Shown piece by piece: positions 4,091 to 36,828 of a DNA stretch of 57,648 nucleotides. The position numbers and the translations under genes are program-made. The DNA lies in the NCBI GenBank assembly GCA_028700415.1, contig JAQVSS010000005.1, positions 1 through 57,648 on the forward strand, given 5' to 3'. The notes under the pieces are model-generated. The model was not told where the DNA came from. It saw only the letters and a list, made by a program, of their open reading frames with translations, and did no database searches. The stretch's first letter is position 1. Every line of letters begins with the position of its first letter. Origin of the DNA: Kiritimatiellia bacterium. GTDB taxonomy: Bacteria > Verrucomicrobiota > Kiritimatiellia > RFP12 > UBA1067.

Positions 4091-4498
4091 ATGAACAAGG
4101 TCACCTCTCTCTGTCTCGCGGCGATCACGGCTGTCTCGCTGACGGGATGCGTGGGTTATAGGAACAGTGTTGCCCAGGGAAATCTGGTGCTAGACATCAA
4201 CACCACGGCGACCTATGACGTCATCGGAGACGCGAAGGGAACCGCGACAGGCGCGACGCTGTTCGGCTTCATTCCGATTGGCGGCGAGAACAAGGGCGGA
4301 TCGATTGGGGCGAGCGGAATGATGATGCTTGGCCCGGTCGAGCAGGCGGCGATTTATAACGCCATCGAGTCTGTGCCAACGGCAGATTCCCTCATGTGGC
4401 CGCGTTTCCAGGTGGAAGTGGCTAATTATATCGTCTATTCCGAAAAGACGGTAACCGTGAAGGGCAAAGCGATCCGCTTCAATCCTTCTGCGAAATGA
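4091..4498 (+). CDS. Small lipoprotein (possibly TRL-like family), paralog 1
   Basis: 135 aa. Signal peptide with lipobox LTGC. RBS GAGGA. The C-terminal 18 aa NYIVYSEKTVTVKGKAIR are identical to the neighbouring paralog despite 8 synonymous nucleotide differences, which indicates purifying selection. TRL-like assignment is tentative. Confidence 0.8.
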   Translation: MNKVTSLCLAAITAVSLTGCVGYRNSVAQGNLVLDINTTATYDVIGDAKGTATGATLFGFIPIGGENKGGSIGASGMMMLGPVEQAAIYNAIESVPTADSLMWPRFQVEVANYIVYSEKTVTVKGKAIRFNPSAK

Positions 4499-4557
4499 CC
4501 TTGATCGGGTTCCCGCAGGGATGATTCTCTACGGAACTTTCTTTCAAAGGAGTCGAA

Positions 4558-5052
4558 ATGAAGTTTGAATGCGGATGGATGGCCGTATTCTTGGCGCTGG
4601 CGGTTTGTGCGGGGTGTGTCGGTTACAGGAGTTCCGCTCCGGAAGCCTGCATGCCCCTCAAGAACACCAAAACCACGGCAAGTTTTGATGTGATTGGGAA
4701 TGCCGAGGGAAGCGCGTCGGGCGCAACGCTGTTCGGGTTCATCGCGATAGGCGGTGAGCGTAAAAGCGGACGGTTGGGTTCGATTCCGACAGACGAGAGG
4801 CAGGTCGACGGTAAGAAAGTGGTTAGCACCATCTTATTCCCGCCGGCACTGCTGTATTGGTGGAAGACTTCCTCGTCCGCGATGGATCCCGTTGAGCAGA
4901 CCGCGCTCTTCAACGCGATCGAGTCAGTCCCGACGGCGGATATGCTTCTGTTGCCGAGGTATCACGTCGAACGTTCCAATTACATCGTCTATTCCGAGAA
5001 AACGGTGACGGTGAAAGGGAAAGCGATCCGGTTGAACAAGTCTGCGAACTGA
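4558..5052 (+). CDS. Small lipoprotein, paralog 2 (carries an internal insertion of about 30 aa)
   Basis: 164 aa. Lipobox CAGC. Strong RBS AAGGAG. Shares GATLFGFI.IGGE, PVEQ.A..NAIESVPTAD and NYIVYSEKTVTVKGKAIR blocks with 4091..4498. Confidence 0.8.
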   Translation: MKFECGWMAVFLALAVCAGCVGYRSSAPEACMPLKNTKTTASFDVIGNAEGSASGATLFGFIAIGGERKSGRLGSIPTDERQVDGKKVVSTILFPPALLYWWKTSSSAMDPVEQTALFNAIESVPTADMLLLPRYHVERSNYIVYSEKTVTVKGKAIRLNKSAN

Positions 5053-19510: not shown

Positions 19511-19915
19511 TCATTCGGCACTCCTTGCCGGGCGGGAAACCTTTTCTCCGCTCTTCTCGTTCTTTCGCGCTGTCTCGACACTTTTGAACAAGATGGAAAT
19601 CACCTCGTCATTTTCTTTCAGCAGCGATTGGAGGCAGTCGGCAGACGAAATCAGCCCCGCCCGAACAATGATACGCAACCACACTTTGGTCTCGCGGAGT
19701 TCTTTGAGCGCAATCCTGATTTTGTGAACGAAGTCCGCTCTCGATTCGGCACCCTGTGCTTCGCCATAGTTTGCAGCCGATGATGTTCCGCTCCGCAATA
19801 TCTGCTCGGCAATGTGTTGCCCCGCCAGCGTATTCGGCAAGGATCCCGCCACTTTGATGATCCTGACAGCGAACTCGATCAGACGCTCTTCCAGATCGAA
19901 CTTCCCGTCATACAT
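19511..19915 (-). CDS. Four-helix-bundle protein (23S rRNA intervening-sequence protein family)
   Basis: MYDGKFDLEERLIEFAVRIIKVAGSLPNTLAGQHIAEQILRSGTSSAANYGEAQGAESRADFVHKIRIALKELRETKVWLRII. Strong RBS AAGGAGG 4-5 nt upstream of ATG 19915. The ORF-track N-terminal extension is translated repeat. Confidence 0.85.
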   Translation of the reverse strand: MYDGKFDLEERLIEFAVRIIKVAGSLPNTLAGQHIAEQILRSGTSSAANYGEAQGAESRADFVHKIRIALKELRETKVWLRIIVRAGLISSADCLQSLLKENDEVISILFKSVETARKNEKSGEKVSRPARSAE

Positions 19916-19922
19916 GTGTCCT

Positions 19923-19980
19923 CCTTGGGCATTGGACATTCCATGTTGGGCATTGGGCATTCCCTGTTGGGCATTGGACC
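19923..19980. repeat. Right arm: three tandem ~20-bp units (TTGGGCATTGGRCATTCC) inverted relative to 19458-19482
   Basis: ccttgggcattggacattccatg / ttgggcattgggcattccctg / ttgggcattggacc, read directly. It ends 2 nt before the kamA stop. Confidence 0.65.
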
Positions 19981-19981
19981 T

Positions 19982-21280
<1,299 letters not shown>

Positions 21281-21438: not shown

Positions 21439-22932
21439 TTACGAACGGTAGTTGGGCGCTTCCTTGATGATTTTCACATCGTGCGGATGGGCTTCGCGCA
21501 CGCCCGCGTTCGTGACGCGGTAGAAGAGCCCGTCGCGCTTGAGTTCGGCGATCGCGCGCGTGCCGCAGTAGCCGAGCGAAGAGCGCAGGCCGCCGCAGAA
21601 TTGGGTCATGATCTTCTTGACCGAACCGGCCAGCGGGACGATACCCTCGATGCCCTGCGGCACGAGGTCGTCCTCTTTCACGTTGTCTTGCCCGTAGCGC
21701 TGGCGGCTGCCCTTGCCCTCCTTCATGGCGGCCAGGCTGCCCATGCCGCGGTAGATGACATAGTGGCGGCCCTCGTGGATGATCTTTTCGCCGGGGCTCT
21801 CTTCGGTGCCCGCCAGGATCGAGCCGAGCATCACGGTGTCCGCGCCCGCGACCAGCGCCTTGGGCACGTCGCCCGAATGGCGGACACCGCCGTCGGCGAT
21901 GACCGGGATCTCGTCGCCGACCGCCTGCGCCGCGTTGTAAACGGCGGTGATCTGAGGGATGCCGACGCCGCACACGACCCGCGTGGTGCAAATGGAGCCG
22001 GGGCCGATGCCGACCTTGACGGCGTGCGCGCCGGCCTTCATCAGGGCCAGGGCGCCTTCGCCCGTGGCCACGTTGCCGCCGACCACGTCGATGTCGGGAT
22101 AGTGCCGGGTGATCCACGTCACCATGTCGAGGATGCCCTTGGAGTGGCCGTGGGCGCTGTCGACCACCACCACGTCGACCTCCTCTTCCGCGAGCATCGC
22201 CATGCGGTTGTGGTCGTCCGCGCTGACCGCGGCGGCCACGCGCAGGCGGTAACGGCTGTCGCGGGTGTAGAGGGGCTGGGCGTTCTCCACCAGCTCCAGC
22301 ACGTCGGTGAAGGAGTAGAGGCCGACGAGCTGCCCGTCGCGGTCGACGAGGGGGAGCTTGCCGATCTTGTTTTCCGTCATGATGGCATAGGCCTGTTCCA
22401 GCGTGGTGCCGGGAGCGGCGGTGATGACGCGGGTGGTCATCACGTCCGAGACACGGGCCGCCGTCTTTTTGGCGAAACGGATGTCGCTGGACGTCACGAT
22501 GCCCGCGAGCCGGTTCTGGTCGTCGAGGATCGGGAACCCGCTGAACGAGAGGTGGTGCTCCTCGCGGTAGTCGCGGATGTAGGCCAGCGTGTCGCTGGCG
22601 CGGAAGGCCACGGGCTTCATGATGAGCCCGTTGAGGTGGTGCTTCACGCGGCGCACATGTTGGGCCTGGACCTCGGGCGGCAGGTTCTTGTGGATCACGC
22701 CGATGCCCCCGAGCATCGCCATGGCGGTCGCCATGCCCGCCTCGGTGACGGTGTCCATCGCGGCGCTGGCAAAGGGGATGTTGAGCGTGATGCGGCTGGT
22801 GAACCGGGAGGCCAAGCTGGTCTCGTCCGGGAGAAAGTCCGCGTAGCGCGTGACGAGTGTGACATCGTCGAACGTCAGCCCCTCATAGGGGAACTGTTTC
22901 ATGAAAGCGGTGACCTGAGAATTGACATGCAT
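21439..22932 (-). CDS. guaB: IMP dehydrogenase
   Basis: 497 aa. LTFDDV, tandem CBS region, catalytic loop [19 protein letters not shown] 6 nt upstream of ATG 22932. Confidence 0.95.
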
Positions 22933-23038
22933 AAAAGACCTCCGAACCCTTTCGCTTTCCCGTTATTATATAACCGATCTGTGCCGGATTAGCAATGCGC
23001 AAGGCGGAAGGGGCCCAAAAAAATATCGGCGGACGCAG

Positions 23039-23067
23039 TTGACATTGATGCGGCGGAATGGTTAAAT
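23039..23067 (+). promoter_or_regulatory. Sigma70-like promoter TTGACA-17-TTAAAT for tRNA-Ala
   Basis: TTGACA at 23039-23044, a 17-nt spacer, TTAAAT at 23062-23067, about 30 nt upstream of the tRNA 5' end. Confidence 0.6.
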
Positions 23068-23096
23068 ACCCCCGTTTTTCGCCTGAAAAGGCTTGT

Positions 23097-23172
<76 letters not shown>

Positions 23173-23188
23173 CTTGAAACAATAAAGG

Positions 23189-23223
23189 AAACCGCGGCTT
23201 CCCGTAGGGGGACGCGGTTTTTT
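23189..23223 (+). terminator. Rho-independent terminator after tRNA-Ala
   Basis: aaaccgcg...cgcggttt stem followed by a T6 run. Confidence 0.7.
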
Positions 23224-23228
23224 GTTTC

Positions 23229-23388
23229 TAACCGCACAGGCCGGCTTCTTTGCTTGTGTTTACCCGTGACACTGAAACGAACTGGACCCGATGTTCGCGC
23301 AAAGGCCGCAGAGTCCGCAGAGTTGATCGAACTCATTCAAGTCGGGATCGGGATTACGATTGAGGCTGTAGGCGGTTAGACTATTAGG
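23229..23388 (+). repeat. Repeat R2, left copy (about 160 bp)
   Basis: The first 51 nt are identical to 28618..28668. By hand alignment the remainder differs by scattered substitutions plus an 8-nt indel. Confidence 0.85.
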
Positions 23389-23408
23389 GGAGAATTGGGA
23401 AGCCAGAT

Positions 23409-23486
23409 GAACGCTCAACGCGGAACTCAGAACGTCGAAGGATTACACTTCAGAGTTGGGCGTTGAACGTTGGACGTTGAGCGTTC
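23409..23486. repeat. Low-complexity hairpin: 12-bp perfect terminal inverted repeat gaacgctcaacg / cgttgagcgttc with CGTTGRR-type internal units
   Basis: Read directly. The right arm is made of tandem cgttgaa-cgttgga-cgttgag-cgttc units. Confidence 0.6.
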
Positions 23487-23685
23487 TATTGGCGCAGTCA
23501 GGACATAGGTAACAAACCAGGCTCAGGATATGGGTGACACTTTCGGATCACTCCCCTCGCCAGGCTGGTGGTTCTCGGGCCCTGGACCGTGCCTTTCATG
23601 GTGGTAGAATCCATAATCCTCCTGTTGGTCGGGGGATCGGGCGACTCCTTCACCAGATTAATGGTTGGGGAAAAGTGGTAAAGTT

Positions 23686-23695
23686 GGGGGGGGGG
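23686..23695 (+). repeat. Homopolymeric G10 tract inside a G-run-rich stretch
   Basis: aagttGGGGGGGGGGagaag, with GGGGG, GGG, GGGG and GGGGG runs nearby (about 23620-23716). Confidence 0.7.
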
Positions 23696-23787
23696 AGAAG
23701 TTCTAAAGTTCGGGGGTTCGTTAGTGCGTTAGTTGGGAAAATACTGAGGACGGAGAGCGGAAGGCGCATTTTGAAAGGCGGTTCGGT

Positions 23788-23816
23788 TTGAACAAACCGG
23801 CTGAACCTGCTAAGAT
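23788..23816 (+). promoter_or_regulatory. Sigma70-like promoter TTGAAC-17-TAAGAT at the head of repeat R1 (left copy), upstream of nqrB
   Basis: Hexamers and 17-nt spacer read directly. The -35 sits inside the 7-2-7 inverted repeat cggtttg-aa-caaaccg (23784-23799). Confidence 0.45.
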
Positions 23817-23918
23817 GCCGACACGATGAAGCGGTGCGTGTTGGCGAATGGAGCTTTTGGAAAGGGGCTGGATATGGGAAATGTACAATGTCAAATTACG
23901 ACCCCACAACAGCCGCCA
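23803..23918 (+). repeat. Repeat R1, left copy (116 bp), directly upstream of nqrB
   Basis: Hand alignment with 28502..28617 gives 5 mismatches in 116 nt and no indels. Confidence 0.9.
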
Positions 23919-23937
23919 AAACAAATCTGGAGGGCGC

Positions 23938-24933
23938 ATGGCGGCAAACGTTAAACTGATCAATTGGCAGAAGCCCATGAAGCATGTCTTGCGCGCCAGC
24001 ACGCCTTTGATGGCATTGTCGATCTATCTGTTCGGTTGGCGCGCTGGCGCGATGTTCCTCTTGACTGCCGCGGCGGCCTTCGCCACGGAAGCGACTTTCA
24101 CGCTCCCGCGCAAAGAGCCGGTCTCTTCCGCCGTTTTCGTTTCCGCCGCGCTTTTCACCTTCTCTCTGCCGCCCACCCTTCCTTTCTGGATGGCGGTTGT
24201 GGGCATCGTCTTCGGCATCGTCTTCGGTAAGATGGTCTACGGTGGGTTCGGACGTAACGTCTTCAACCCCGCGCTGACCGGACGGGCTTTCATCTATATC
24301 AGCTTCGGCAACTTCATGACCGCCCAGTGGTACGAGCCATGGACACGCTTCCCGGCTGGCCTGGCGCACTGGGGCTGGACCGCCGCATCCGCCCCGCCGG
24401 ATGCAATCACCTCGGCCACTCCGGGCGCGCTGCTCAAAATGTCGGCTGAAACTCTAGCCGAGCGCGGCCTCACCGCCGACCTCTCGCTGCGCGCCCTGTT
24501 CATGGGAGATTGCGCCGGTGTGATCGGCGGCACCAGCGCCGCGCTGACCATCCTGTGCGGACTCTACCTGCTGTGGAGCAAGGCCGCCAACTACCGCATC
24601 GTGATCGCGGGCTTTGCAGGCTTCACGGTTGTACAGACCTTTTTTTGGCAACTGGGCGTCGGCAACGCCGCCGATCCTCTGCGCGCCGCCGCCGCCGGCA
24701 GCCTGATCATCGGCATCTTCTTTTATGCCACAGACCCCATCACCGCCTCCCAGACGAATCCCGGACGCTGGATCTACGGCGCTTTCATCGGAGTCATGTC
24801 CTGCCTGATAGCCACCTTCTCGGCCTGGCCGGCCGGCACGATGTTCGCCGTGCTGCTGGCCAACATGTTCGCGCCGATCATGGATCACGTCATCAAACTA
24901 TTGCAGTCCAACCCGGGAAAGGCCGCGACTTGA
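23938..24933 (+). CDS. nqrB: NqrB/RnfD-like membrane subunit (FMN-binding) of an NQR/RNF-type redox pump
   Basis: GFGRNVFNPALTGRAF, flavinylation-type motif PPDAITSATPGALL, YATDPITASQT. Start is set at MAANVK (ATG 23938, GGAGG RBS) because the ORF-track start at 23848 lies inside repeat R1. About 331 aa, which is RnfD-sized. Confidence 0.85.
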   Translation: MAANVKLINWQKPMKHVLRASTPLMALSIYLFGWRAGAMFLLTAAAAFATEATFTLPRKEPVSSAVFVSAALFTFSLPPTLPFWMAVVGIVFGIVFGKMVYGGFGRNVFNPALTGRAFIYISFGNFMTAQWYEPWTRFPAGLAHWGWTAASAPPDAITSATPGALLKMSAETLAERGLTADLSLRALFMGDCAGVIGGTSAALTILCGLYLLWSKAANYRIVIAGFAGFTVVQTFFWQLGVGNAADPLRAAAAGSLIIGIFFYATDPITASQTNPGRWIYGAFIGVMSCLIATFSAWPAGTMFAVLLANMFAPIMDHVIKLLQSNPGKAAT

Positions 24934-25535
24934 TGAATGCCCGCGTCAAAGACGGAGTGCGCACCGCAGGTTTTATGGCGGCGCTGTCGATCGCGCTGAT
25001 CACCTGCATCGCAGCATTGTCTCTAGTCACTGCCGAGCGGGTCCAACGCAACTCCGCGCTCTTCCTGCAAAAGACGGTCATGGCGGTGGCGGGCGAGACT
25101 GTGCCGGACAACCCCGCCGAGGTGGCGGAGTGGTTCAGTACTTCCGTTAAATCCGAGCCGCCCGACGCCCCGTCCCTGTACCGCGTGTACGGCACTGACA
25201 AAATCCGCCCGCGCGCCTTGGTATATAAGCGCAACGCACAAGGCCTGTGGGGCAACATCACCGCCGTGGTCGGCTTCGATCCTGCGCGGCGCGCCTTTCT
25301 GGAGACCCGCTTTATCGAGCATAACGAGACGCCCGGACTAGGTGCGCGCATCAGTGAAGAGTGGTTCGCGCGGCAGACCGCAGGCAAGACCGGGCCTTTC
25401 AAGCTTATGCCCGAAGGCACAAGTTCGCCAGCACCCACGGAGATCGACGCTATCACCGGCGCGACGGTCACATCATCGGCCGTGCGCGACATGCTGAACA
25501 AGCTGCTGCTGGAAATCAAGGAGACCCGGCCATGA
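24933..25535 (+). CDS. nqrC: NqrC/RnfG-like FMN-binding subunit
   Basis: N-terminal TM segment, then the FMN_bind-type motif EIDAITGATVTSSAV. ATG overlaps the nqrB stop (ATGA). About 200 aa, which is RnfG-sized. Confidence 0.85.
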   Translation: MNARVKDGVRTAGFMAALSIALITCIAALSLVTAERVQRNSALFLQKTVMAVAGETVPDNPAEVAEWFSTSVKSEPPDAPSLYRVYGTDKIRPRALVYKRNAQGLWGNITAVVGFDPARRAFLETRFIEHNETPGLGARISEEWFARQTAGKTGPFKLMPEGTSSPAPTEIDAITGATVTSSAVRDMLNKLLLEIKETRP

Positions 25536-26152
25536 CCGCCATCCGCGACTGGAAAATATTCAAAGATAACCTGATGACGCAAAACCCGGTCTTCGTGCAG
25601 GTGCTGGGCATCTGCTCTACACTGGCGGTCACCAATGTGCTTAAAAACACGCTGGTAATGTGCCTGGGCTTGATATTCGTCACGACCCTGTCCAATCTTA
25701 GCCTTTCGCTGCTGCGCGCCTGGATACCCTCGCGCATCCGCATGATGGTGGAAGTGCTGATCATCGCCAGCCTTGTGATCATCGTGGACATATGCCTCAA
25801 AGCCTACTATCCCGACATCTCACGCCAGCTCGGGCCGTACGTGGGACTGATCATTACCAACTGCATCATCATGGGCCGCGCCGAGGCGGTGGCGCTTACC
25901 AGCCCGCCGCGCACAGCCTTGATCGACGGCATATCATCCGGCATCGGCTACTCATACGTGTTGCTGCTGATTGCCTGCTGCCGTGAGCTGCTGGGCACTG
26001 GCGGCATCTGGGGCGTGCGTTTGCTGGGGCAGTCGTGGATCAACTGGTCGATCATGGTCATGGCGCCCGGCGGTTTCTTTGTGTTGGCCGTCTTCATTTG
26101 GATCGTAAAGGGCTGGATTATGCGTCCCGTAACGGGAAAAGCGGGGGCTTAA
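25532..26152 (+). CDS. nqrD: NqrD/RnfE-like membrane subunit
   Basis: QNPVFVQVLGICSTLAVT and LGPYVGLIITNCIIMGRAEA. Start overlaps the nqrC stop. Confidence 0.9.
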   Translation: MTAIRDWKIFKDNLMTQNPVFVQVLGICSTLAVTNVLKNTLVMCLGLIFVTTLSNLSLSLLRAWIPSRIRMMVEVLIIASLVIIVDICLKAYYPDISRQLGPYVGLIITNCIIMGRAEAVALTSPPRTALIDGISSGIGYSYVLLLIACCRELLGTGGIWGVRLLGQSWINWSIMVMAPGGFFVLAVFIWIVKGWIMRPVTGKAGA

Positions 26153-26153
26153 C

Positions 26154-26747
26154 ATGCAGGAACTGGGATTCTTCGCGATTTTGTTCTCAGCGGTGTTCAC
26201 AAACAACATCCTGCTGACCAACTATCTGGGCATGTGCTCATTCCTCGGCTGTTCGCGCGAGATCAAGACCGCGCTGGGGCTGGGTTCGGCCGTGATCTTC
26301 GTCACCGCCGCCACCAGCGTACTCAACTGGCTGGTATACGCCTGCATCCTTGTGCCGCTGGATCTAGTGTACCTGCGTTTCATAGTCTTCATTGTGGTGA
26401 TCGCCGCATTCGTGCAGTTGGTGGAGATGATTATCGAACGCGTCTCCGAACCGCTGTACAACGCGCTGGGCATTTTTCTGCCGCTGATCACGGTAAACTG
26501 CGCGATTTTAGGAGTGAGTCTCTTTATGGTTATTCGCGAATACACGTTCAAACAGGCCGCCGCTTACGGTCTGGGCAGCGGTGTGGGCTGGGCCTTGGCG
26601 ATCATTGCGATGGCTGGCATACGCCAGCGCCTGACGCAGCGTTCGCGCATCCCGCGCGGCCTGGAAGGCCCGGGTATTGCGCTGATCATCGCCGGCACCA
26701 TGGCCCTCGCCTTCATGGGCTTCAACGGCATGATCAACCTTAGCTGA
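26154..26747 (+). CDS. nqrE: NqrE/RnfA-like membrane subunit
   Basis: FSAVFTNNILLTNYLGMCSFLG and LPLITVNCAILGVSL. 197 aa. Confidence 0.9.
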   Translation: MQELGFFAILFSAVFTNNILLTNYLGMCSFLGCSREIKTALGLGSAVIFVTAATSVLNWLVYACILVPLDLVYLRFIVFIVVIAAFVQLVEMIIERVSEPLYNALGIFLPLITVNCAILGVSLFMVIREYTFKQAAAYGLGSGVGWALAIIAMAGIRQRLTQRSRIPRGLEGPGIALIIAGTMALAFMGFNGMINLS

Positions 26748-26772
26748 CTCACAACTCGCCCTCGCCGATCAA

Positions 26773-27873
26773 ATGACCTCCATCCTGATAGCCGTGTCCG
26801 TAATCTGCGCCATCAACACCGCGTTCGCGATTCTCTTGCTGATCGCGGAGGCGCTGATCGTTGACACCGGCGAGTGCCGCATCGTGATTAACGGCGAAAA
26901 GGAACTGGCGGTCAACGGCGGCCGCTCGCTGCTGGCGACGCTCAAAGACGAACAGATCTTCATACCCTCCGCCTGCGGTGGACGCGGTTCCTGCGGCCTC
27001 TGCAAAGTGACGGTATTGGAGGGCGCGGGGCCGTTGTTGCCGACTGAGACGCCCTGGCTGACGCCAGAGGAACAAAAAGGCCAGATTCGCCTGGCCTGCC
27101 AAGTCAAGGTCAGACGTGACCTGCGCATCAAGATCCCTGACGAGCTTTTCAACGTGCGCCAATACTGCACACAGGTTGAGGACATCACCGACCTGACGCA
27201 CGACATCAAACAAATCACCCTCAAGCTACTGGAACCACCTGAAATCGCTTTCAAGGCCGGTCAATTCATCCAGATCGAGGTGCCGCCTTACGCGTTGACC
27301 GACGAGCCGGTCTACCGCGCCTATTCGATCTCTTCAGACCCCGCGGAAAAAGACCACATGGAATTAGAGATCCGCTACGTACCCAACGGCATCTGCACCA
27401 CTTATGTCCACAAGCACCTTAAACCCGGCGACAAAGTTACCCTCAACGGACCCTACGGCGAATTCGGGCTGAGCGCTTCCGACAGCGAGCTCATCTGCAT
27501 TGCCGGCGGTTCCGGCATGGCGCCGATAAAATCGATTCTGCTCGAAATGGCGCGCACCGGCAACCCGCGCCGCTGCCGTTACTTCTTCGGCGCGCGCTCC
27601 GGTCGCGACCTGTTTCTTAATGACCTCATGCGAAGTTTAGAACAAAAGTTGCCAAACTTCAGTTTCATCCCGACCCTTTCTTCGCCGCAGCCGGAGGACC
27701 GTTGGGAAGGCGAGATCGGCAAGGTCACGGATGCCGTGGGACGCCATGTCAAGGATGCCTCACGCGCCGAGGCCTACCTTTGCGGCAGCCCGCTGATGAT
27801 TGACGCTTGCATCAAATTGCTGCGTGAAAAGGACATGCCAGAAGACAAGATTTTTTACGACAAGTTCGCCTGA
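26773..27873 (+). CDS. nqrF: NqrF-like subunit: TM anchor, 2Fe-2S ferredoxin domain and FAD/NADH ferredoxin-reductase domain
   Basis: ACGGRGSCGLCKV...RLACQV (2Fe-2S), YRAYSISS (FAD RxYS), GGSGMAP (NADH). 366 aa. Confidence 0.9.
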   Translation: MTSILIAVSVICAINTAFAILLLIAEALIVDTGECRIVINGEKELAVNGGRSLLATLKDEQIFIPSACGGRGSCGLCKVTVLEGAGPLLPTETPWLTPEEQKGQIRLACQVKVRRDLRIKIPDELFNVRQYCTQVEDITDLTHDIKQITLKLLEPPEIAFKAGQFIQIEVPPYALTDEPVYRAYSISSDPAEKDHMELEIRYVPNGICTTYVHKHLKPGDKVTLNGPYGEFGLSASDSELICIAGGSGMAPIKSILLEMARTGNPRRCRYFFGARSGRDLFLNDLMRSLEQKLPNFSFIPTLSSPQPEDRWEGEIGKVTDAVGRHVKDASRAEAYLCGSPLMIDACIKLLREKDMPEDKIFYDKFA

Positions 27874-27887
27874 ACCGGGAGGCAAGA

Positions 27888-28355
27888 GTGAAACAGAGTG
27901 TCGAATATAACATCATCCAGAACAACATGCAACCGGGCGCGATCACCCGCGACGGTATGCTGGGGCATGACCGGCGGAACCTGCGCGACATCATCGAGAC
28001 GGACGACGCCGCGGTGCGCCGCCTCGGCCTGACGCACATATCCATTGCGGCGCGCATGCGCGAACTGCGTGACGCGGGACGGGAGGGGCTGGGCGAGAAC
28101 GTCACGGTTTCCGGTCGCTTCGACGTGCGGGTGGACAGTGTGCGCGGCAAGCTCCCCTGTCCTTTCCGGCACGAGGGCCTTTTCGACAAAGAGTTCGTCG
28201 AGATTCTCAACCGCGACACCGGCGCGCGCATGACCTTCAGCACGCTTAACATCCACATGATCGAGGAGCACGGCTTTTACGAGGGTCTGGGTTCGCCCTT
28301 TCGTCTCGACCCTGACCTGCTTGCCAGCGTACTCGGCCTGACCCCTGATCCCTGA
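27888..28355 (+). CDS. Hypothetical soluble protein, last gene of the nqr-like operon
   Basis: 155 aa. GTG start with GGGAGG RBS at 5-nt spacing, 15 nt after the nqrF stop. No motif recognised (LNIHMIEEHGFYEGLGSPFRLDP). Confidence 0.6.
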   Translation: MKQSVEYNIIQNNMQPGAITRDGMLGHDRRNLRDIIETDDAAVRRLGLTHISIAARMRELRDAGREGLGENVTVSGRFDVRVDSVRGKLPCPFRHEGLFDKEFVEILNRDTGARMTFSTLNIHMIEEHGFYEGLGSPFRLDPDLLASVLGLTPDP

Positions 28356-28486
28356 CCCCGTGAAATTGGGTTGCGGTTTGCAGGCCGCTGTGGACCACCT
28401 GCTGTCGCATACATTCGCAGGGCGGGCGTCAGCAGGGTCGTATCGGGACATCGAGATAAAAGGCGTTTGTGGAGGGCGGGGAGCGA

Positions 28487-28515
28487 TTGAACAATCAGGC
28501 GGAACCTGCCAAGAT
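28487..28515 (+). promoter_or_regulatory. Promoter-like TTGAAC-17-CAAGAT at the head of repeat R1 (right copy)
   Basis: Same architecture as 23788-23816. The -35 lies inside the 5-2-5 inverted repeat gattg-aa-caatc. The -10 is weaker (C at position 1). Confidence 0.35.
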
Positions 28516-28617
28516 GCCGACACGATGAAGCGGTGCGTGTTGGCGAATGAAGCTTTTGGAAAGGGGCTGGATATGGGGAAGGTACAATGTCAAATGACGA
28601 CCCCACAACAGCCGCCA
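28502..28617 (+). repeat. Repeat R1, right copy (116 bp), here directly fused to R2
   Basis: See the left copy. 111 of 116 positions are identical by hand alignment. Confidence 0.9.
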
Positions 28618-28785
28618 TAACCGCACAGGCCGGCTTCTTTGCTTGTGTTTACCCGTGACACTGAAACGGACTGGACCCGATGTTCGCGCAAAGGACGCAG
28701 AGCCCACAGAGTTGATTGAATTCATTCAAATCGGGATCGGGATGACGAGTAAGGCTGTTAGGCTGTAGGCTGTTAGACTATTAGG
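28618..28785 (+). repeat. Repeat R2, right copy (about 168 bp)
   Basis: Aligned by hand to 23229..23388. Confidence 0.85.
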
Positions 28786-28893
28786 TGAGAGTGCGGGGGA
28801 GGAGAAGGGGTTTAGGCTGTAGGCTTTTAGCCTATTAGGTGAGAAGTGGGACGTTCCGGTCTAACAGCCTAACAGTCTAAATGCCTAACAGCC
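28753..28893. repeat. Low-complexity composite: inverted arms ggctgttaggctgtaggctgttagac / gtctaacagcctaacagtctaaatgcctaacagcc enclosing two ~37-bp direct repeats
   Basis: The arms share 11-nt perfect matches at both ends. The internal direct repeats are ggctgtaggc(t/t)(g/t)ttag(a/c)ctattaggtgaga, starting at 28761 and 28815. Confidence 0.6.
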
Positions 28894-28972
28894 TTCTCCC
28901 TGCCACGCCAAAGCGTTACGCATGTGTGCATTTGCGGCCGCCGCAATAATCGGCTGGAGTTCGGGTGCGTGA

Positions 28973-29569
28973 ATGGGGTACAGTGAAAGAATGATGAAAA
29001 AACAGGTCAATATGGCGCGTGTTTCCGGGCTGGTCCGCCGGCTGCTGGTTGAACTCGGAGAGGACCCGGAACGTGAGGGGCTGAAGCTTACGCCCAAGCG
29101 GATGGCCGAGTCGCTGGCGTTTCTGACAAGCGGATACTTGCAGACGCCGCGGAAGGTTTTGAACGGGGCGGTGTTTCAGGCGCACCACAACCACATGATC
29201 ATTGTGCGGGACATTGAGATTTACAGTTTGTGTGAACATCACCTGCTGCCGTTCTATGGGCGTTGCCATGTGGGATACATCGCGAAAGAAAAGGTCATGG
29301 GCGTCAGCAAGATCGCGCGGATCGTCGATTGTTTCGCCCGCCGCCTGCAGATTCAGGAGCGGCTGACGGAGCAGGTGGCAGAGGCGATTCTGCAGGAGGC
29401 GCAGGCCGAAGGCGTGGGTGTGGTGATGGAGTGCCGTCACCTGTGCATGATGATGCGCGGCGTGGAGAAGCAGAATTCGGTGATGACCACCTCGGTGGTG
29501 CTGGGATCGTTCAGGAACGATCCGGCCACCCGGCAGGAGTTCCTTGCCCTAATCAGAAAATCAGAGTGA
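28973..29569 (+). CDS. folE: GTP cyclohydrolase I (FolE type 1)
   Basis: [43 protein letters not shown]. Start is uncertain among Met codons at 28973, 28991 and 29012. Confidence 0.9.
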
Positions 29570-29639
29570 GCGGCGGATTTTCCCGAGACGGGCGTTTTCA
29601 GGACAGTCGGCGGCACGGCGTCATCTGTAAAAGGAGCGT

Positions 29640-31973
29640 ATGAAAAAAACGGGTGGGGCGCTTTTATTTGCACTGTTTTTCCTCTCCCTTTTAACCGGAG
29701 GATGCGGGCGGAACCGCATTCCGGTTTCTCTCGGGACGAAAACCGCGCAGCTTACCGATGTGCTGTCGTTTTGCCGTCCGGCGCGGGCGGTCAGCGGCAT
29801 GGAGTCGACCTACGACCGCCGGGGCGGCAATGTGGACTGGTGGCAAGTTTTCGTGCCGTGCGAGGGCAAGGAACTGTATGAGGCCATCAGTCTCACCGGG
29901 CCGGGATGCCTGACGCGCATTTGGCAAACGAATTTCCCGGTCACGGAATGGCTTTTTTATTTTGATGGCGAGACGGAGCCGCGGTTGCGGCTCAAGCCGG
30001 AAGAGCTTTTTAGTGGCGACGTGCGGTTCAATCCCCTGCAGGGCGGCACAAGCGGCGGCGCGTATTCGTACCTTCCGCTTCCGTATCAGCAGTCCTTGCG
30101 TGTCGTGGTCCGGATCCCCAACCGGACGCCGGATGCGCGCTCTTACTTTCACATCAATTATGAGCAGTATCCGTCCCGTACGCGCGTGGTCTCATGGCCC
30201 AAACACTATGATGCGGCAACAAGCAATACGGTGATGCAGTGCAACAGCGTGTTGCGCCAGACGCGCGAGACCGTGAAGCAGGCGGCTCAAAGCAAAAGCT
30301 GGGACAAACATGTGCTTGCGCCTAAGCAAGCCACCGAAATTCTTGCGGCAGCCGGGGAGGGGATGATCTCGACGTTGCGGATACGCCTTGATTTTGGAGC
30401 GGCGAATGCGGTTGTCCGGTCACTGATGTTGCGCTGTCTTGTGCTGGAGGCGTATTGGGACGGTTCCCCGCACGCCAGCATTCAGGTCCCGCTGGGCGAC
30501 TTCTTCTGCAACGGGCTGCATCCGCGTGAATTCACGAGTGTGGCGATGGCGTTCGTTGACGGGGTTTATGTGTGCCGGTTGCCGATGCCGTTCCGGAAGG
30601 GCGCACGTTTGCTGATCCGCAACGATGGCCCCCTTGCGGTGAGCGGTGAGATATCTGCCGATGTGAGGCCGGGGGATGTTGCCGACGCGCTTTATCTGCA
30701 CGCTTCCTTCAATTCGGCGGTGTCGGCGGGACAGCCCTTCCGTATGATGCGCACAAGCGGGCAGGGTAAATATGTCGGCTGCTACCTGATCGCGTTGGGG
30801 ATGGACGGCGGGTGGAACATTCTGGAGGGCGATGAGTCCTTTTACCGCGACGGCAGCAAGACTCCCTGCTGCCTTGGGACCGGCTTAGAGGATTATTTCA
30901 ATGGCGGCTGGTATTATTTCGGGCATTTTGAGCTGCCGCTCCACGGGTTGTTGGAGAAAGCCGCCATGCGCACGGCGCAATACCGGTTTCATCTCTCTGA
31001 CCCCGTCACGTTCACCAAGGATTTGCGCATGAATCTTGAGTTTGGCGACGCCAACCGCGCGGGAGGGTATCTCTCCGCCGTCGCTTACTGGTATCAGGAC
31101 CGGCCCGGGCTTGCGGGCAGCGAACTTCAGGCGCCTGAGAAACGTTTCCCCAGTATAGACCGTGTCGGCGCGGTGACCATCATGGATGAATTGTTTGAGC
31201 TCGAGCGGATGGGATTGATCGCTGACGCGCGCGAACGGTGCGAATTTTATGCCGCCGCGTTCGGCAGCAGTGCGGACCGGTTCGTTTTTCAGCTGCGTGC
31301 GGCGGCGTACCGTGAAATGATGGAGGGATATCCGGCGGCGCGCGACACCTATGCGGCGGTGATGGGTTCTCCAGGAATTCCCGGAGAAATTGCCGCGCAG
31401 GCAAAGCTGTTGCTTTGGAGGGGGGAAAAGCCGGGGCGCGCGATTTTTGGCGCGCATGGGTTCGGCGAATACAAGCTGTTTGTTGACGGGAATCCTGTCG
31501 GCGCCGGGAACCATCCGCAGATCTGGCAGGCGTTCCCGGTTGAGCTGGCTCCTGGCGAGCATATTCTTGAGGCCGAAATCATCCCGCACCATCAGTATTC
31601 ATTCATTTCGGTTGGCTTCAGTTCGTTTTTCACAAACGTCGTCAGCGACGTGTCCTGGGACTACCGGGTCCCTTCAGCAGGCGCGGACGATCCGAAATCG
31701 AAGTGGAGGCCGTATGAAGCTGTTCCGGGTATCTTCCCGACCATGGCCTTTTGGCAATTTGTCCCGAATGCGTTTCCGTGTGTGCAGTCCGGCCAGCAGC
31801 ACGGGGGGCCTTTCCCCGGCTGGACGGAGAAAACGGGGCAGGCCGTCCGCATCCGCCGGAAAATCCGCATCCCCGAAAGCGCGGGTAACCGGCCTCCGAT
31901 GCCGGCCCGCGTTTATCAGATGCCGGGCCATGCCGTCCGCCCGGCGGACGACACGTCGAATGCGGACCTGTAG
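29640..31973 (+). CDS. DUF2961 (GH172-like) lipoprotein with C-terminal extension of about 300 aa
   Basis: Lipobox LTGGC. YDRRGGNVDWW, GPGCLTRIWQTN, FYFDGE, YLPLPY, YFHINYEQY, LEGDESFYRDG, GTGLEDYFNGGWYF. Confidence 0.8.
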   Translation: MKKTGGALLFALFFLSLLTGGCGRNRIPVSLGTKTAQLTDVLSFCRPARAVSGMESTYDRRGGNVDWWQVFVPCEGKELYEAISLTGPGCLTRIWQTNFPVTEWLFYFDGETEPRLRLKPEELFSGDVRFNPLQGGTSGGAYSYLPLPYQQSLRVVVRIPNRTPDARSYFHINYEQYPSRTRVVSWPKHYDAATSNTVMQCNSVLRQTRETVKQAAQSKSWDKHVLAPKQATEILAAAGEGMISTLRIRLDFGAANAVVRSLMLRCLVLEAYWDGSPHASIQVPLGDFFCNGLHPREFTSVAMAFVDGVYVCRLPMPFRKGARLLIRNDGPLAVSGEISADVRPGDVADALYLHASFNSAVSAGQPFRMMRTSGQGKYVGCYLIALGMDGGWNILEGDESFYRDGSKTPCCLGTGLEDYFNGGWYYFGHFELPLHGLLEKAAMRTAQYRFHLSDPVTFTKDLRMNLEFGDANRAGGYLSAVAYWYQDRPGLAGSELQAPEKRFPSIDRVGAVTIMDELFELERMGLIADARERCEFYAAAFGSSADRFVFQLRAAAYREMMEGYPAARDTYAAVMGSPGIPGEIAAQAKLLLWRGEKPGRAIFGAHGFGEYKLFVDGNPVGAGNHPQIWQAFPVELAPGEHILEAEIIPHHQYSFISVGFSSFFTNVVSDVSWDYRVPSAGADDPKSKWRPYEAVPGIFPTMAFWQFVPNAFPCVQSGQQHGGPFPGWTEKTGQAVRIRRKIRIPESAGNRPPMPARVYQMPGHAVRPADDTSNADL

Positions 31974-35751: not shown

Positions 35752-36828
35752 TCAGGGCTGTTTGGGGTAGAGGTCAAGGTCGGCGGGAATATTCCGCAGT
35801 GTGGCGCACAGGAGATCGATGGTTTGGGCGGCGTCGTCGAGGCTGAGGATTTCGACCGGGCTGTGCATGTAGCGCAGCGGGATGCTGAGCTGCGCCACGG
35901 CGGCGCCCGAACGCGACAGGCGCATCGCCCACGCGCAGGTGCCGGTGCCGCGGCAGCGGACCTGACGTTGCAGCGGGATGTTCTGCGTGTTGCCCGTTTC
36001 CGTGACGAGTGTGTTGAGCGCGGTGTGGTAGGTGGGGCCGATACCCAAGACCGGGCCGGCGCCCACACGGATGTCGCCCGCGATTTTACGGTCTTCCTTT
36101 TGAGCGTCGGTGGCGAAGGTCACATCCACGCAAATGCCGATATGGGGGTTGAGATCGTATGCGGCGGTTGTGCCGCCGACCAGTCCGACCTCCTCTTGAA
36201 CGCTGGCGACCATATGCAGCGCGACATTCAGGTGTTCGCCCGCAAGGCGGCGCATGGCCTCGGTGACGACGAACGCGCCGATGCGGTTGTCAAAACCCCG
36301 GCAGGCCACGCGGTTGTTGGCGAGATCCAGCCAGCCAGCGGCGACCACAGCGGGGCAGCCGAGGTCGACGCGTTCGAGCGCGTCGGCGCGGTTCTTGGCG
36401 CCGATATCGACAGCGATTTCCCGGATTTCCTTTGGCGCGATCTTTTCGCGTTCCTTGGCGGAGAGCAGGTGGGGGGGGCGGACGCCAAACACGCCATAGA
36501 CCGGCCCGTTCTTTCCCTGGATCGCGATGCGTTCCGCAGCCAGCAGGGGGATGGTGACGCCGCCGAGCGGAGACATGTAAAGGAACCCGTCGTCGTCGAT
36601 ATACTGGACCAAGAAGCCGATCTCGTCGCAATGGCCTTCGATCATGACCCTCAGGGGGGCTTCCGGGTTGAGACAGGCATGCAGATTGCCGTGGACGTCG
36701 ATCTTCAGGCCCGGCACGGCGGCGGCGCGCAGGTGGGTGGCAAGCAGCGACATGCCGGCGGATTCGAAACCGGTCGGCGTGGGAAGTGCGACAAGGTTTT
36801 TCAAGAGCGACAAAGTTTCTTTATCCAT
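35752..36828 (-). CDS. M42 family metallopeptidase (FrvX / glutamyl aminopeptidase-like)
   Basis: LKNLVALPTPTGFE, IEGHCDEIGFLV, FDNRIG, VQEEVGL. Confidence 0.85.
   Translation of the reverse strand: MDKETLSLLKNLVALPTPTGFESAGMSLLATHLRAAAVPGLKIDVHGNLHACLNPEAPLRVMIEGHCDEIGFLVQYIDDDGFLYMSPLGGVTIPLLAAERIAIQGKNGPVYGVFGVRPPHLLSAKEREKIAPKEIREIAVDIGAKNRADALERVDLGCPAVVAAGWLDLANNRVACRGFDNRIGAFVVTEAMRRLAGEHLNVALHMVASVQEEVGLVGGTTAAYDLNPHIGICVDVTFATDAQKEDRKIAGDIRVGAGPVLGIGPTYHTALNTLVTETGNTQNIPLQRQVRCRGTGTCAWAMRLSRSGAAVAQLSIPLRYMHSPVEILSLDDAAQTIDLLCATLRNIPADLDLYPKQP

Follow-up and report, generated by a model that had tools for sequence, protein, structure and literature searches.

Paired non-coding repeats at the joints of three synteny blocks around an Rnf/Nqr-like operon in Kiritimatiellia

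Low-copy intergenic repeats and segmental duplications are known at the synteny breakpoints of bacterial genomes. Dispersed intergenic hairpin repeats, the repetitive extragenic palindromic (REP), BIME and REPIN sequences, are known from E. coli and Pseudomonas, and the Correia elements of Neisseria are small repeats that carry promoters. Here we describe two non-coding repeats, R1 and R2, each present once on either side of a six-gene Rnf/Nqr-like operon that lies beside a tRNA-Ala gene in a 57,648-nucleotide stretch from a Kiritimatiellia bacterium (contig JAQVSS010000005.1), hereafter the window. The edges of the repeats coincide with synteny breaks, and we favour, at a rough probability of 0.6, the reading that the repeats are junction DNA at rearrangement joints in one Kiritimatiellia lineage and that the operon is native, not foreign. 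Low-copy and REP-like intergenic repeats at rearrangement joints are known already, and this locus is another instance. It also carries a caution: a tRNA gene with direct repeats around a functional module mimics an island, yet the DNA here would be native and shuffled between short synteny blocks.

As with breakpoint repeats elsewhere, two to few diverged non-coding copies stand where colinearity ends, together with REP-like hairpins and without mobility genes; unlike them, the modules are permuted (R2...R1 on the left, R1R2 on the right) and one has seemingly been recruited as the upstream region of an operon. The locus shares with REP, BIME and REPIN sequences a 26-nt AGGCTGTAGGCTGTTAGACTATTAGG motif that is intergenic, multi-copy and arranged in direct and inverted pairs forming a hairpin, but the tandem units are 7-8 nt long, no RAYT transposase was seen in the part scanned (open reading frames (ORFs) 17253-37528), copy number comes from metagenome depth only, and dispersal does not extend to the unique part of R2 or to the 3' end of R1. 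Similar to Correia elements, a short repeated non-coding module with sigma-70-like hexamers lies directly upstream of genes, but it has no terminal inverted repeats, no TA target duplication and few copies, and the R1 promoter is only predicted. The resemblance to tRNA-linked islands lies in the adjacent tRNA gene, the direct repeats on both sides and the lineage-specific position, as opposed to which an integrase is missing, the tRNA lies outside the repeats, composition does not depart from that of the surroundings, the operon carried is clade-wide and no empty site was found.

Repeat edges coincide with synteny breaks

Self-comparison, both of 22000-30000 and of the whole window, shows only two strong repeat families, with bounds of 23761/23788-23922 versus 28460/28487-28621 for R1 and 23229-23387/23393 versus 28618-28776/28790 for R2. 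When the non-coding DNA on the left is compared by blastn with the entire window, the R1 copies (23788-23922 and 28487-28621) are 93.3% identical over 135 nt (E = 3e-54), and the R2 copies (23229-23393 and 28618-28790) are 88.4% identical over 173 columns (E = 9e-61), with one indel of 8 bp, AGGCTGTT. There is no further copy of either within the 57.6-kb window. A 5' extension of R1 to 23761 was tried and is not significant taken alone. On the right, R1 abuts R2 (..CAGCCGCCA|TAACCGCACAGG..), with AAC common to both; on the left, R2 begins straight after the tRNA-Ala terminator and is separated from R1 by a spacer, S, of 394-414 bp. The R1 copies have diverged by 7%, without homogenisation, and their longest identical run is 39 nt. 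An earlier reading of this DNA from its letters alone (the sequence-only reading) had described this layout well: it placed R1 at 23803-23918 with five mismatches, and exactly five lie there; it had R1 and R2 contiguous on the right and R2 right after the tRNA-Ala terminator on the left, and the alignments agree; and its left spacer of about 415 bp, rich in hairpins and G-runs, corresponds to S, with a hairpin at 23410-23471 and a G-run. The features between and around the blocks discussed below are as follows.

21439..22932, minus strand: guaB (IMP dehydrogenase; Pfam IMPDH, 5e-140), part of block A with the tRNA
23097..23172, plus strand: intact tRNA-Ala (GGC) (ARAGORN; Rfam tRNA, 67 bits)
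23186..23228, plus strand: intrinsic terminator of the tRNA (hairpin and T-run), end of block A
23229..23393, plus strand: R2, left copy, 88% identical to 28618-28790, with a REP-like motif at its end (23363-23388)
23394..23787, plus strand: spacer S, with a heptamer-array imperfect hairpin (23410-23486) and, further on, G-rich DNA containing a 25-bp tandem repeat (23667-23716)
23788..23922, plus strand: R1, left copy, 93% identical to 28487-28621, ending 2 nt before the ribosome-binding site (RBS) region of nqrB
28356..28386, plus strand: sequence conserved just 3' of the nqr module, where block B ends, with the -35 hexamer TTGCGG of the promoter that drives the next gene in the related locus L161
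28387..28486, plus strand: Z', lineage-specific filler upstream of the right R1, without a match in 161 related loci or elsewhere in the window
28487..28621, plus strand: R1, right copy, with the -10-like hexamer altered to CAAGAT
28618..28790, plus strand: R2, right copy, fused to R1 with AAC shared
28752..28901, plus strand: REP/REPIN-like tail of (AGGCTGTT)n units; with a second motif at 28811-28851 and an inverted one at 28861-28895 these make up a long hairpin
28950..29569, plus strand: folE with its core promoter, start of block C (GTP_cyclohydroI, 8e-72; probable start 28991)

R1 and R2 have the properties of local segmental duplications: few copies, high identity over at least 100 bp, the same orientation, a distance of a few kb and non-coding sequence. 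The 5' part of R1 has additional, more divergent copies elsewhere. Either all six frames contain stops or non-synonymous differences between the copies far outnumber synonymous ones, so protein-coding potential was rejected, and a 42-codon upstream ORF in R1 is not kept between the copies. No Rfam family matches R1 or R2 at E<=1, the tRNA being the sole match, and the consensus folds of R1 and R2 contain no compensatory pairs, at the low power of two sequences per fold. Neither R1, R2 nor S has a match among 161 related loci (1.94 Mb; L numbers below), plasmids or phages.

Comparison with sister lineages divides the window into three blocks: block A, guaB-tRNA-Ala-terminator, extends to 23228; block B, the nqr module, occupies 23923-28386; and block C, folE-GH172 and onward, starts at about 28950. 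Between them lie two lineage-specific fillers, R2-S-R1 (23229-23922, 694 bp) and Z'-R1-R2-tail (28387-28949, 563 bp). Sisters at about 87-95% nucleotide (nt) identity keep blocks A, B and C, never adjacent to each other. On the left flank, compared among 63 GuaB relatives, L160 (93% nt), L103, L101, L109 and L149 keep guaB-tRNA-Ala-terminator, and homology stops at 23227-23230, the first base of R2, in L160 and L103. Downstream of the tRNA each sister differs, L160 going on into a DUF72 gene; most GuaB relatives at 80-93% amino-acid (aa) identity share only guaB with the window. At the left edge of block B, L087 (NqrB 92% aa, 89.6% nt) and L088 (85% aa) align only from 23922-23924, and upstream of that edge they have promoter-like sequence of their own (..CCATATCGGTTATTGT..), with a divergent dnaK further upstream in L088. 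The same upstream sequence recurs in sister contigs from metagenomes X2 and X6, which carry CCATATCGGTTATT... there. At the right edge, L161 (nqrF 91.5% nt, orf155 87% nt) is homologous to 28386 and then diverges, the break lying between the -35 and -10 elements of a TTGCGG-17-TAGAAT promoter before an M42 peptidase gene. Block C is colinear in nine contigs, which represent three sister lineages (FolE 94-97% aa); colinearity begins at 28948-28954, extends at most to 38069 and runs at 87-92% nt through folE-GH172-546aa-AP_endonuc_2-GT4-M42-PgpA. Upstream of the block C start, none of the nine contigs matches the window: one has a 211-aa ORF and a deaminase, one a lipase, and in one group the contig ends. 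Identity to the closest relative is similar across the blocks (nqrB 89.6%, nqrF 91.5%, folE 92%, guaB 86-95% nt).

Since the three blocks stand at unrelated places in the sisters, the present order would have arisen by rearrangement in this lineage. In the account that we favour, chromosomal rearrangement brought blocks A, B and C together; modular intergenic repeats may have filled the joints or given rise to them, with R1 and R2 duplicated along the way. The repeat pair would then be a by-product, by local duplication or illegitimate joining of repeat modules, the right copy would be a fusion of both modules, and R1-left was probably recruited as the upstream promoter region of the operon. 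In this genus synteny blocks are very short, and REP-like hairpins abound between genes. The tRNA-Ala adjoins the operon or folE in no relative examined, so there is no empty site, and the synteny check proposed with the sequence-only reading accordingly yielded no empty guaB-tRNA-Ala-folE arrangement in any of them; 80 FolE relatives in GTDB genomes (at most 85% aa, too distant for synteny) have no neighbour in common with the window. That reading had the module 'acquired or rearranged'; lineage-specific rearrangement with repeats at the joints agrees with its second half, and acquisition runs counter to the native composition and the clade-wide occurrence of the operon.

The arrangement of the repeats is no assembly artefact. 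All four junctions are present in independent data, in assemblies from at least five metagenomes. An ENA contig, L001, is 99.94% identical to the window over 25331-31553 and spans R1|R2, and Logan contigs of X1, X2, X19, X25 and X6, five unrelated metagenome studies, reproduce term|R2, R1|nqrB and R1|R2 exactly, with R1|R2 spanned by exact contigs in X1, X2 and X19. These five runs, from wastewater, landfill and manure, contain the species. The arrangement of the locus is identical in five metagenomes, apparent differences between run lists being patchy coverage. Neither a structural variant nor an R1xR1 deletion was seen in the Logan contigs, whose depth of 2-15x puts rare variants beyond reach. 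Recombination between the R1 copies would delete the operon, and is possible at low frequency, given that the longest identical run is 39 nt.

Three further observations concern the block edges. The tRNA-Ala terminator region (23176-23228) is bordered by GAAACAATAAA and TTTTTTGTTTC, with A- and T-runs on both sides, so the terminator could act in both directions. The closest GuaB relative, L098 (95% nt, with the radical-SAM-guaB adjacency kept), loses homology at 23022 (L098:1-3440 against window 22933-23022); it has no tRNA-Ala beside guaB, although more distant relatives keep it there, and this break is therefore a further rearrangement point. Finally, L161:1-1609 matches the window at 27369-28386 and 36364-36828, with nqrF and orf155 at 87-91% nt and M42 at only 75% nt (80% aa). 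The M42 gene of L161 lies directly downstream on the same strand, and that of the window lies 7.4 kb away on the other strand; the discordance could reflect a paralogue, an inversion or a mosaic. An inversion of folE..M42 relative to L161 fits geometrically, but was set aside since the L161 gene, at 75% nt, is possibly a paralogue. The gene before M42 is pgpA both in the window and in true sisters.

The Rnf/Nqr-like operon and its upstream region

The Na+-NQR complex consists of NqrABCDEF and Rnf of RnfABCDEG (PMC12174285). As in those complexes, the operon encodes RnfD/NqrB, RnfG/NqrC, RnfE/NqrD and RnfA/NqrE counterparts, with NqrF as the NADH input module; unlike them, the cluster has no NqrA/RnfC and no RnfB gene, and its sixth gene encodes a 155-aa protein of unmatched fold. 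The set is thus B-, C-, D-, E- and F-like subunits plus orf155, as opposed to the six subunits, NqrA included, that together make up Na+-NQR. The genes are as follows.

23938..24933, plus strand: RnfD/NqrB-like subunit (PF03116, 9e-78; TIGR01946 rnfD, 220 bits, above the cut-off)
24930..25535, plus strand: RnfG/NqrC-like FMN-binding subunit (PF04205; TIGR01947, 8.6e-21, below the cut-off)
25532..26152, plus strand: NqrD/RnfE-like subunit (PF02508; NF006777, 225.5 bits against a cut-off of 235)
26154..26747, plus strand: RnfA/NqrE-like subunit (PF02508; TIGR01943, 224.6 bits against a cut-off of 229.3)
26773..27873, plus strand: NqrF-like subunit (Fer2, FAD_binding_6 and NAD_binding_1, for 2Fe-2S, FAD and NAD; TIGR01941 nqrF, 298 bits against a cut-off of 295)
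27888..28355, plus strand: orf155, the conserved sixth gene, always after nqrF in relatives (408 homologues)

The same six genes occur in the same order in L082-L086 (NqrB 76-79% identity), each with different neighbours, and the module is conserved in Kiritimatiellia/Lentisphaerae relatives at 55-92% NqrB identity; homologues of NqrB at E<=1e-40 number 1451. The best FolE and NqrB relatives point to an uncultured, Kiritimatiellia-like organism of the PVC group. On this comparative evidence the six-gene module is a clade-wide native operon. The orf155 product (155 aa) has no Pfam, NCBIfam or PDB sequence match and contains invariant LPCPF and HGFYEG motifs. Its AlphaFold2 model is confident (pLDDT 94.7, pTM 0.89) and matches no PDB fold (best E 0.056, TM 0.17). 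This NqrA-less module with orf155, widespread in Kiritimatiellia/Lentisphaerae, merits biochemical attention more than the repeats do.

The composition of the operon is that of its surroundings. Among 43 ORFs called by frame bias in third-position GC (GC3), the six cluster genes have a GC of 0.599 and a GC3 of 0.776, against 0.609+-0.042 and 0.768+-0.070 for the other 37 (Mann-Whitney p 0.50 and 0.90), and their codon-usage distances are typical for genes of such length. To the right of the repeats GC3 falls below that of the nqr genes (folE 0.754, GH172 0.707, the 546-aa gene 0.687), and guaB is an outlier with the highest GC3 in the window (0.91). The sequence-only reading had seen a cluster of lower GC with more A/T-ending codons. 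Neither impression survives the counts, the eye having been misled by guaB, and a composition indistinguishable from the flanks is what that reading had itself named as grounds for giving up its island.

Immediately upstream, R1-left opens with a promoter-like TTGAAC(23788)-17-TAAGAT(23811-23816), followed by a hairpin with a 9-bp stem (23820-23850). Because R1 replaces the promoter that sisters have next to the RBS of nqrB, and because the tRNA terminator blocks read-through from upstream, we infer that R1-left (or S) now supplies the operon promoter and a leader of about 115 nt; one repeat module was probably co-opted in this way. Coverage in a metatranscriptome run, X21, is confined to the tRNA and a few conserved pieces. 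If R1 truly drives the operon, the locus would be a clean natural case of promoter replacement by a repeated intergenic module.

The right copy appears to have no such role. The core promoter of folE (TGGAGT 28955-28960, 18 nt, TACAGT 28979-28984), with TTGAGT/TGGAGT variants, is conserved in four lineages and ends six bases before the ATG at 28991, so folE probably has its own promoter and a leaderless or near-leaderless mRNA; a longer ORF start at 28973 is probably not used. Because folE keeps this promoter, we infer that R1-right, or R1-R2 as a whole, is a functionless or decaying, non-essential paralogue; it has CAAGAT for TAAGAT and lies about 370 nt from folE.

Copy number and REP-like elements in the fillers

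Parts of the fillers are dispersed in the source metagenomes. Within S, the segments 23443-23496 and 23578-23739 reach 6-17x the baseline Logan depth with many differing flanks, and the tail reaches 6-15x baseline with diverse flanks in X1-X3. The AGGCTGTAGGCTGTTAGACTATTAGG motif closes R2 and recurs, direct and inverted, in the tail, and, at depths within the same 6-17x range, is likewise multi-copy with varied flanks. High depth and many flanks identify the motif and the dispersed parts of S as REP/REPIN-like elements; in the strict sense of short, palindromic, intergenic sequences in many copies, the description applies only to the tail motif at 28752-28790 and 28861-28895. Loose ends there show an agreement of about 0.5. 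Hairpins of tandem 7-8-nt units, (AGGCTGTT)n and (CGTTGAA)n, form direct and inverted arrays at 28752-28901 and 23363-23486, and short arrays of this kind also occur at the distant Kiritimatiellia loci L014, L020 and L064. An 85-aa ORF inside S has no family match. Hidden homology of S to Z' or to the tail was sought, and none exceeds shuffled controls.

The repeats themselves differ in copy number along their length. The unique part of R2 and the last approximately 15 nt of R1 lie at about 2x the baseline depth of the organism, which leaves only the two known copies, as opposed to about 7-8x for 23788-23841 and about 3.5x for 23842-23905 within R1. A third copy of R1 is found on a 471-nt contig, with 13 mismatches and one gap and with divergence from 23905; its depth matches that of the organism in X1 (15.3) and X2 (10). 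R1 is thus probably a small dispersed family of at least three copies. The sequence-only reading would have yielded to repeats abundant everywhere in the genome, and the picture is divided: many copies, next to other flanks, exist of the 5' part of R1 and of the REP-like end of R2, and the unique part of R2 has two copies only.

Alternative readings of the repeat pair

Several points weigh against junction DNA as the whole account. The start of left R2 and the end of left R1 are the exact point at which R1 and R2 abut on the right, with AAC at all three joints; random duplication leaves this coincidence unexplained, and the pattern may point to a circular intermediate or to some specific recombination event. 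The L161 distances (nqr 87-91%, M42 75% nt) could point to module exchange between related lineages. The genomes compared come no closer to the window than about 90-95% nt. The hexamers of R1-left match the consensus at 8 of 12 positions and, at a sigma-70 scan threshold of 9/12, are not called as a promoter. The copy numbers derive from metagenome contig depth, to which related organisms may add, and are upper estimates.

The alternative that survives best, though an unlikely one, is a Campbell-type integration, in which a circle from a related lineage carrying the nqr operon and R2 (or R1) recombined downstream of the tRNA-Ala. Direct repeats of 135-165 bp around a complete operon are the expected product of a single crossover, the 7-12% divergence between copies fits a diverged donor, and a donor that was nevertheless related would account for the native composition; the neighbours of the operon differ from relative to relative, and nqr and M42 distances disagree in L161. 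Two nested repeat pairs, however, call for either a second event or a circle with R1 already duplicated on it, and the recipient site that the model needs, tRNA-Ala-R2-folE, exists in no relative, the tRNA-Ala and folE being neighbours in no sister. R1 and R2 occur in 0 of the 161 related loci and in no plasmid or phage.

We give little credence to a second possibility, that R2-S-R1 (694 bp) is a small non-autonomous element moving via a circle or abutted ends, with the right R1-R2 as a permuted second copy. It would account directly for the edge coincidence, since the left outer edges (term|R2 and R1|nqrB) map to the single R1|R2 junction on the right, AAC included, in a geometry resembling attL/attR versus attP; homology to sisters ends at each of these edges, and R1 and parts of S have further copies. 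Yet the right copy lacks S, which bears no relation to the right flanks either, R2 has only two copies, and the other R1 copies diverge at 23905 rather than at the proposed end, 23922. At 3 nt, the common AAC is not significant. No terminal inverted repeats link 23229.. and ..23922, and there is no duplication of the flanks, TTTC|TAAC and AAAC|AAAT, such as a miniature inverted-repeat transposable element would leave; no transposase, RAYT or integrase is encoded nearby in Pfam scans of the ORFs from 17253 to 37528. An integron-like attC at the R1|R2 junction was also considered and rejected, there being no GTTRRRY core by eye and no integrase.

Equally doubtful is a selected role for the pair, with R1 (with or without R2) as a duplicated cis-regulatory module for a joint response of the nqr operon and folE. 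R1 does span from the -35-like hexamer to just before the RBS, its 39-nt invariant block with a hairpin follows right after the -10-like box, and further R1-like copies precede other sequences. On the folE side the case fails to match: that gene has, in four lineages, a conserved core promoter right against its start codon, R1-right stands about 370 nt away, behind R2 and hairpins, and the -10-like box of the right copy is mutated. Moreover, there is no Rfam family and no compensatory change, and a run of such invariance is statistically unremarkable (p of about 0.07 at a single position). A more speculative combination, at long odds, is that R1 is the portable promoter/leader of a small dispersed family that displaced the native operon promoter, the permuted geometry recording a circular or abutted-ends intermediate with a crossover at ..GCCGCCA|TAAC..; if true, Kiritimatiellia would have a mobile promoter cassette of a new kind, non-coding and without an integrase.

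The island model that follows from the sequence-only reading (23229-28785, horizontally acquired beside tRNA-Ala, with R1 and R2 as attachment-site repeats) is very improbable and largely refuted, because, for all its adjacent tRNA gene, flanking direct repeats and lineage-specific location, its GC, GC3 and codon usage are native, its cargo is a clade-wide conserved operon that is no further from its nearest relatives (87-91% nt) than the housekeeping blocks on either side are from theirs, neither an integrase nor a transposase lies within about 6 kb, as that reading had itself noted (Pfam scans of ORFs 17253-37528 return only housekeeping and glycan-related families), the tRNA 3' end lies outside the repeats (its last 26 nt have a single occurrence in the window) with a terminator between tRNA and repeat, no empty site exists among the relatives, and the repeat order is permuted, unlike attL/attR.

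Elsewhere in the window, two adjacent small ORFs (135 and 164 aa) at 4091-5052 are tandem paralogues, 72-73% identical at the nucleotide level over segments of 120-165 nt. A gene of the 23S rRNA intervening-sequence-protein family lies at 19511-19991, with a low GC of 0.53 and a GC3 of 0.62, and at its 5' end, toward the radical-SAM gene, is a 21-bp tandem repeat of 3.2 copies (19925-19991).

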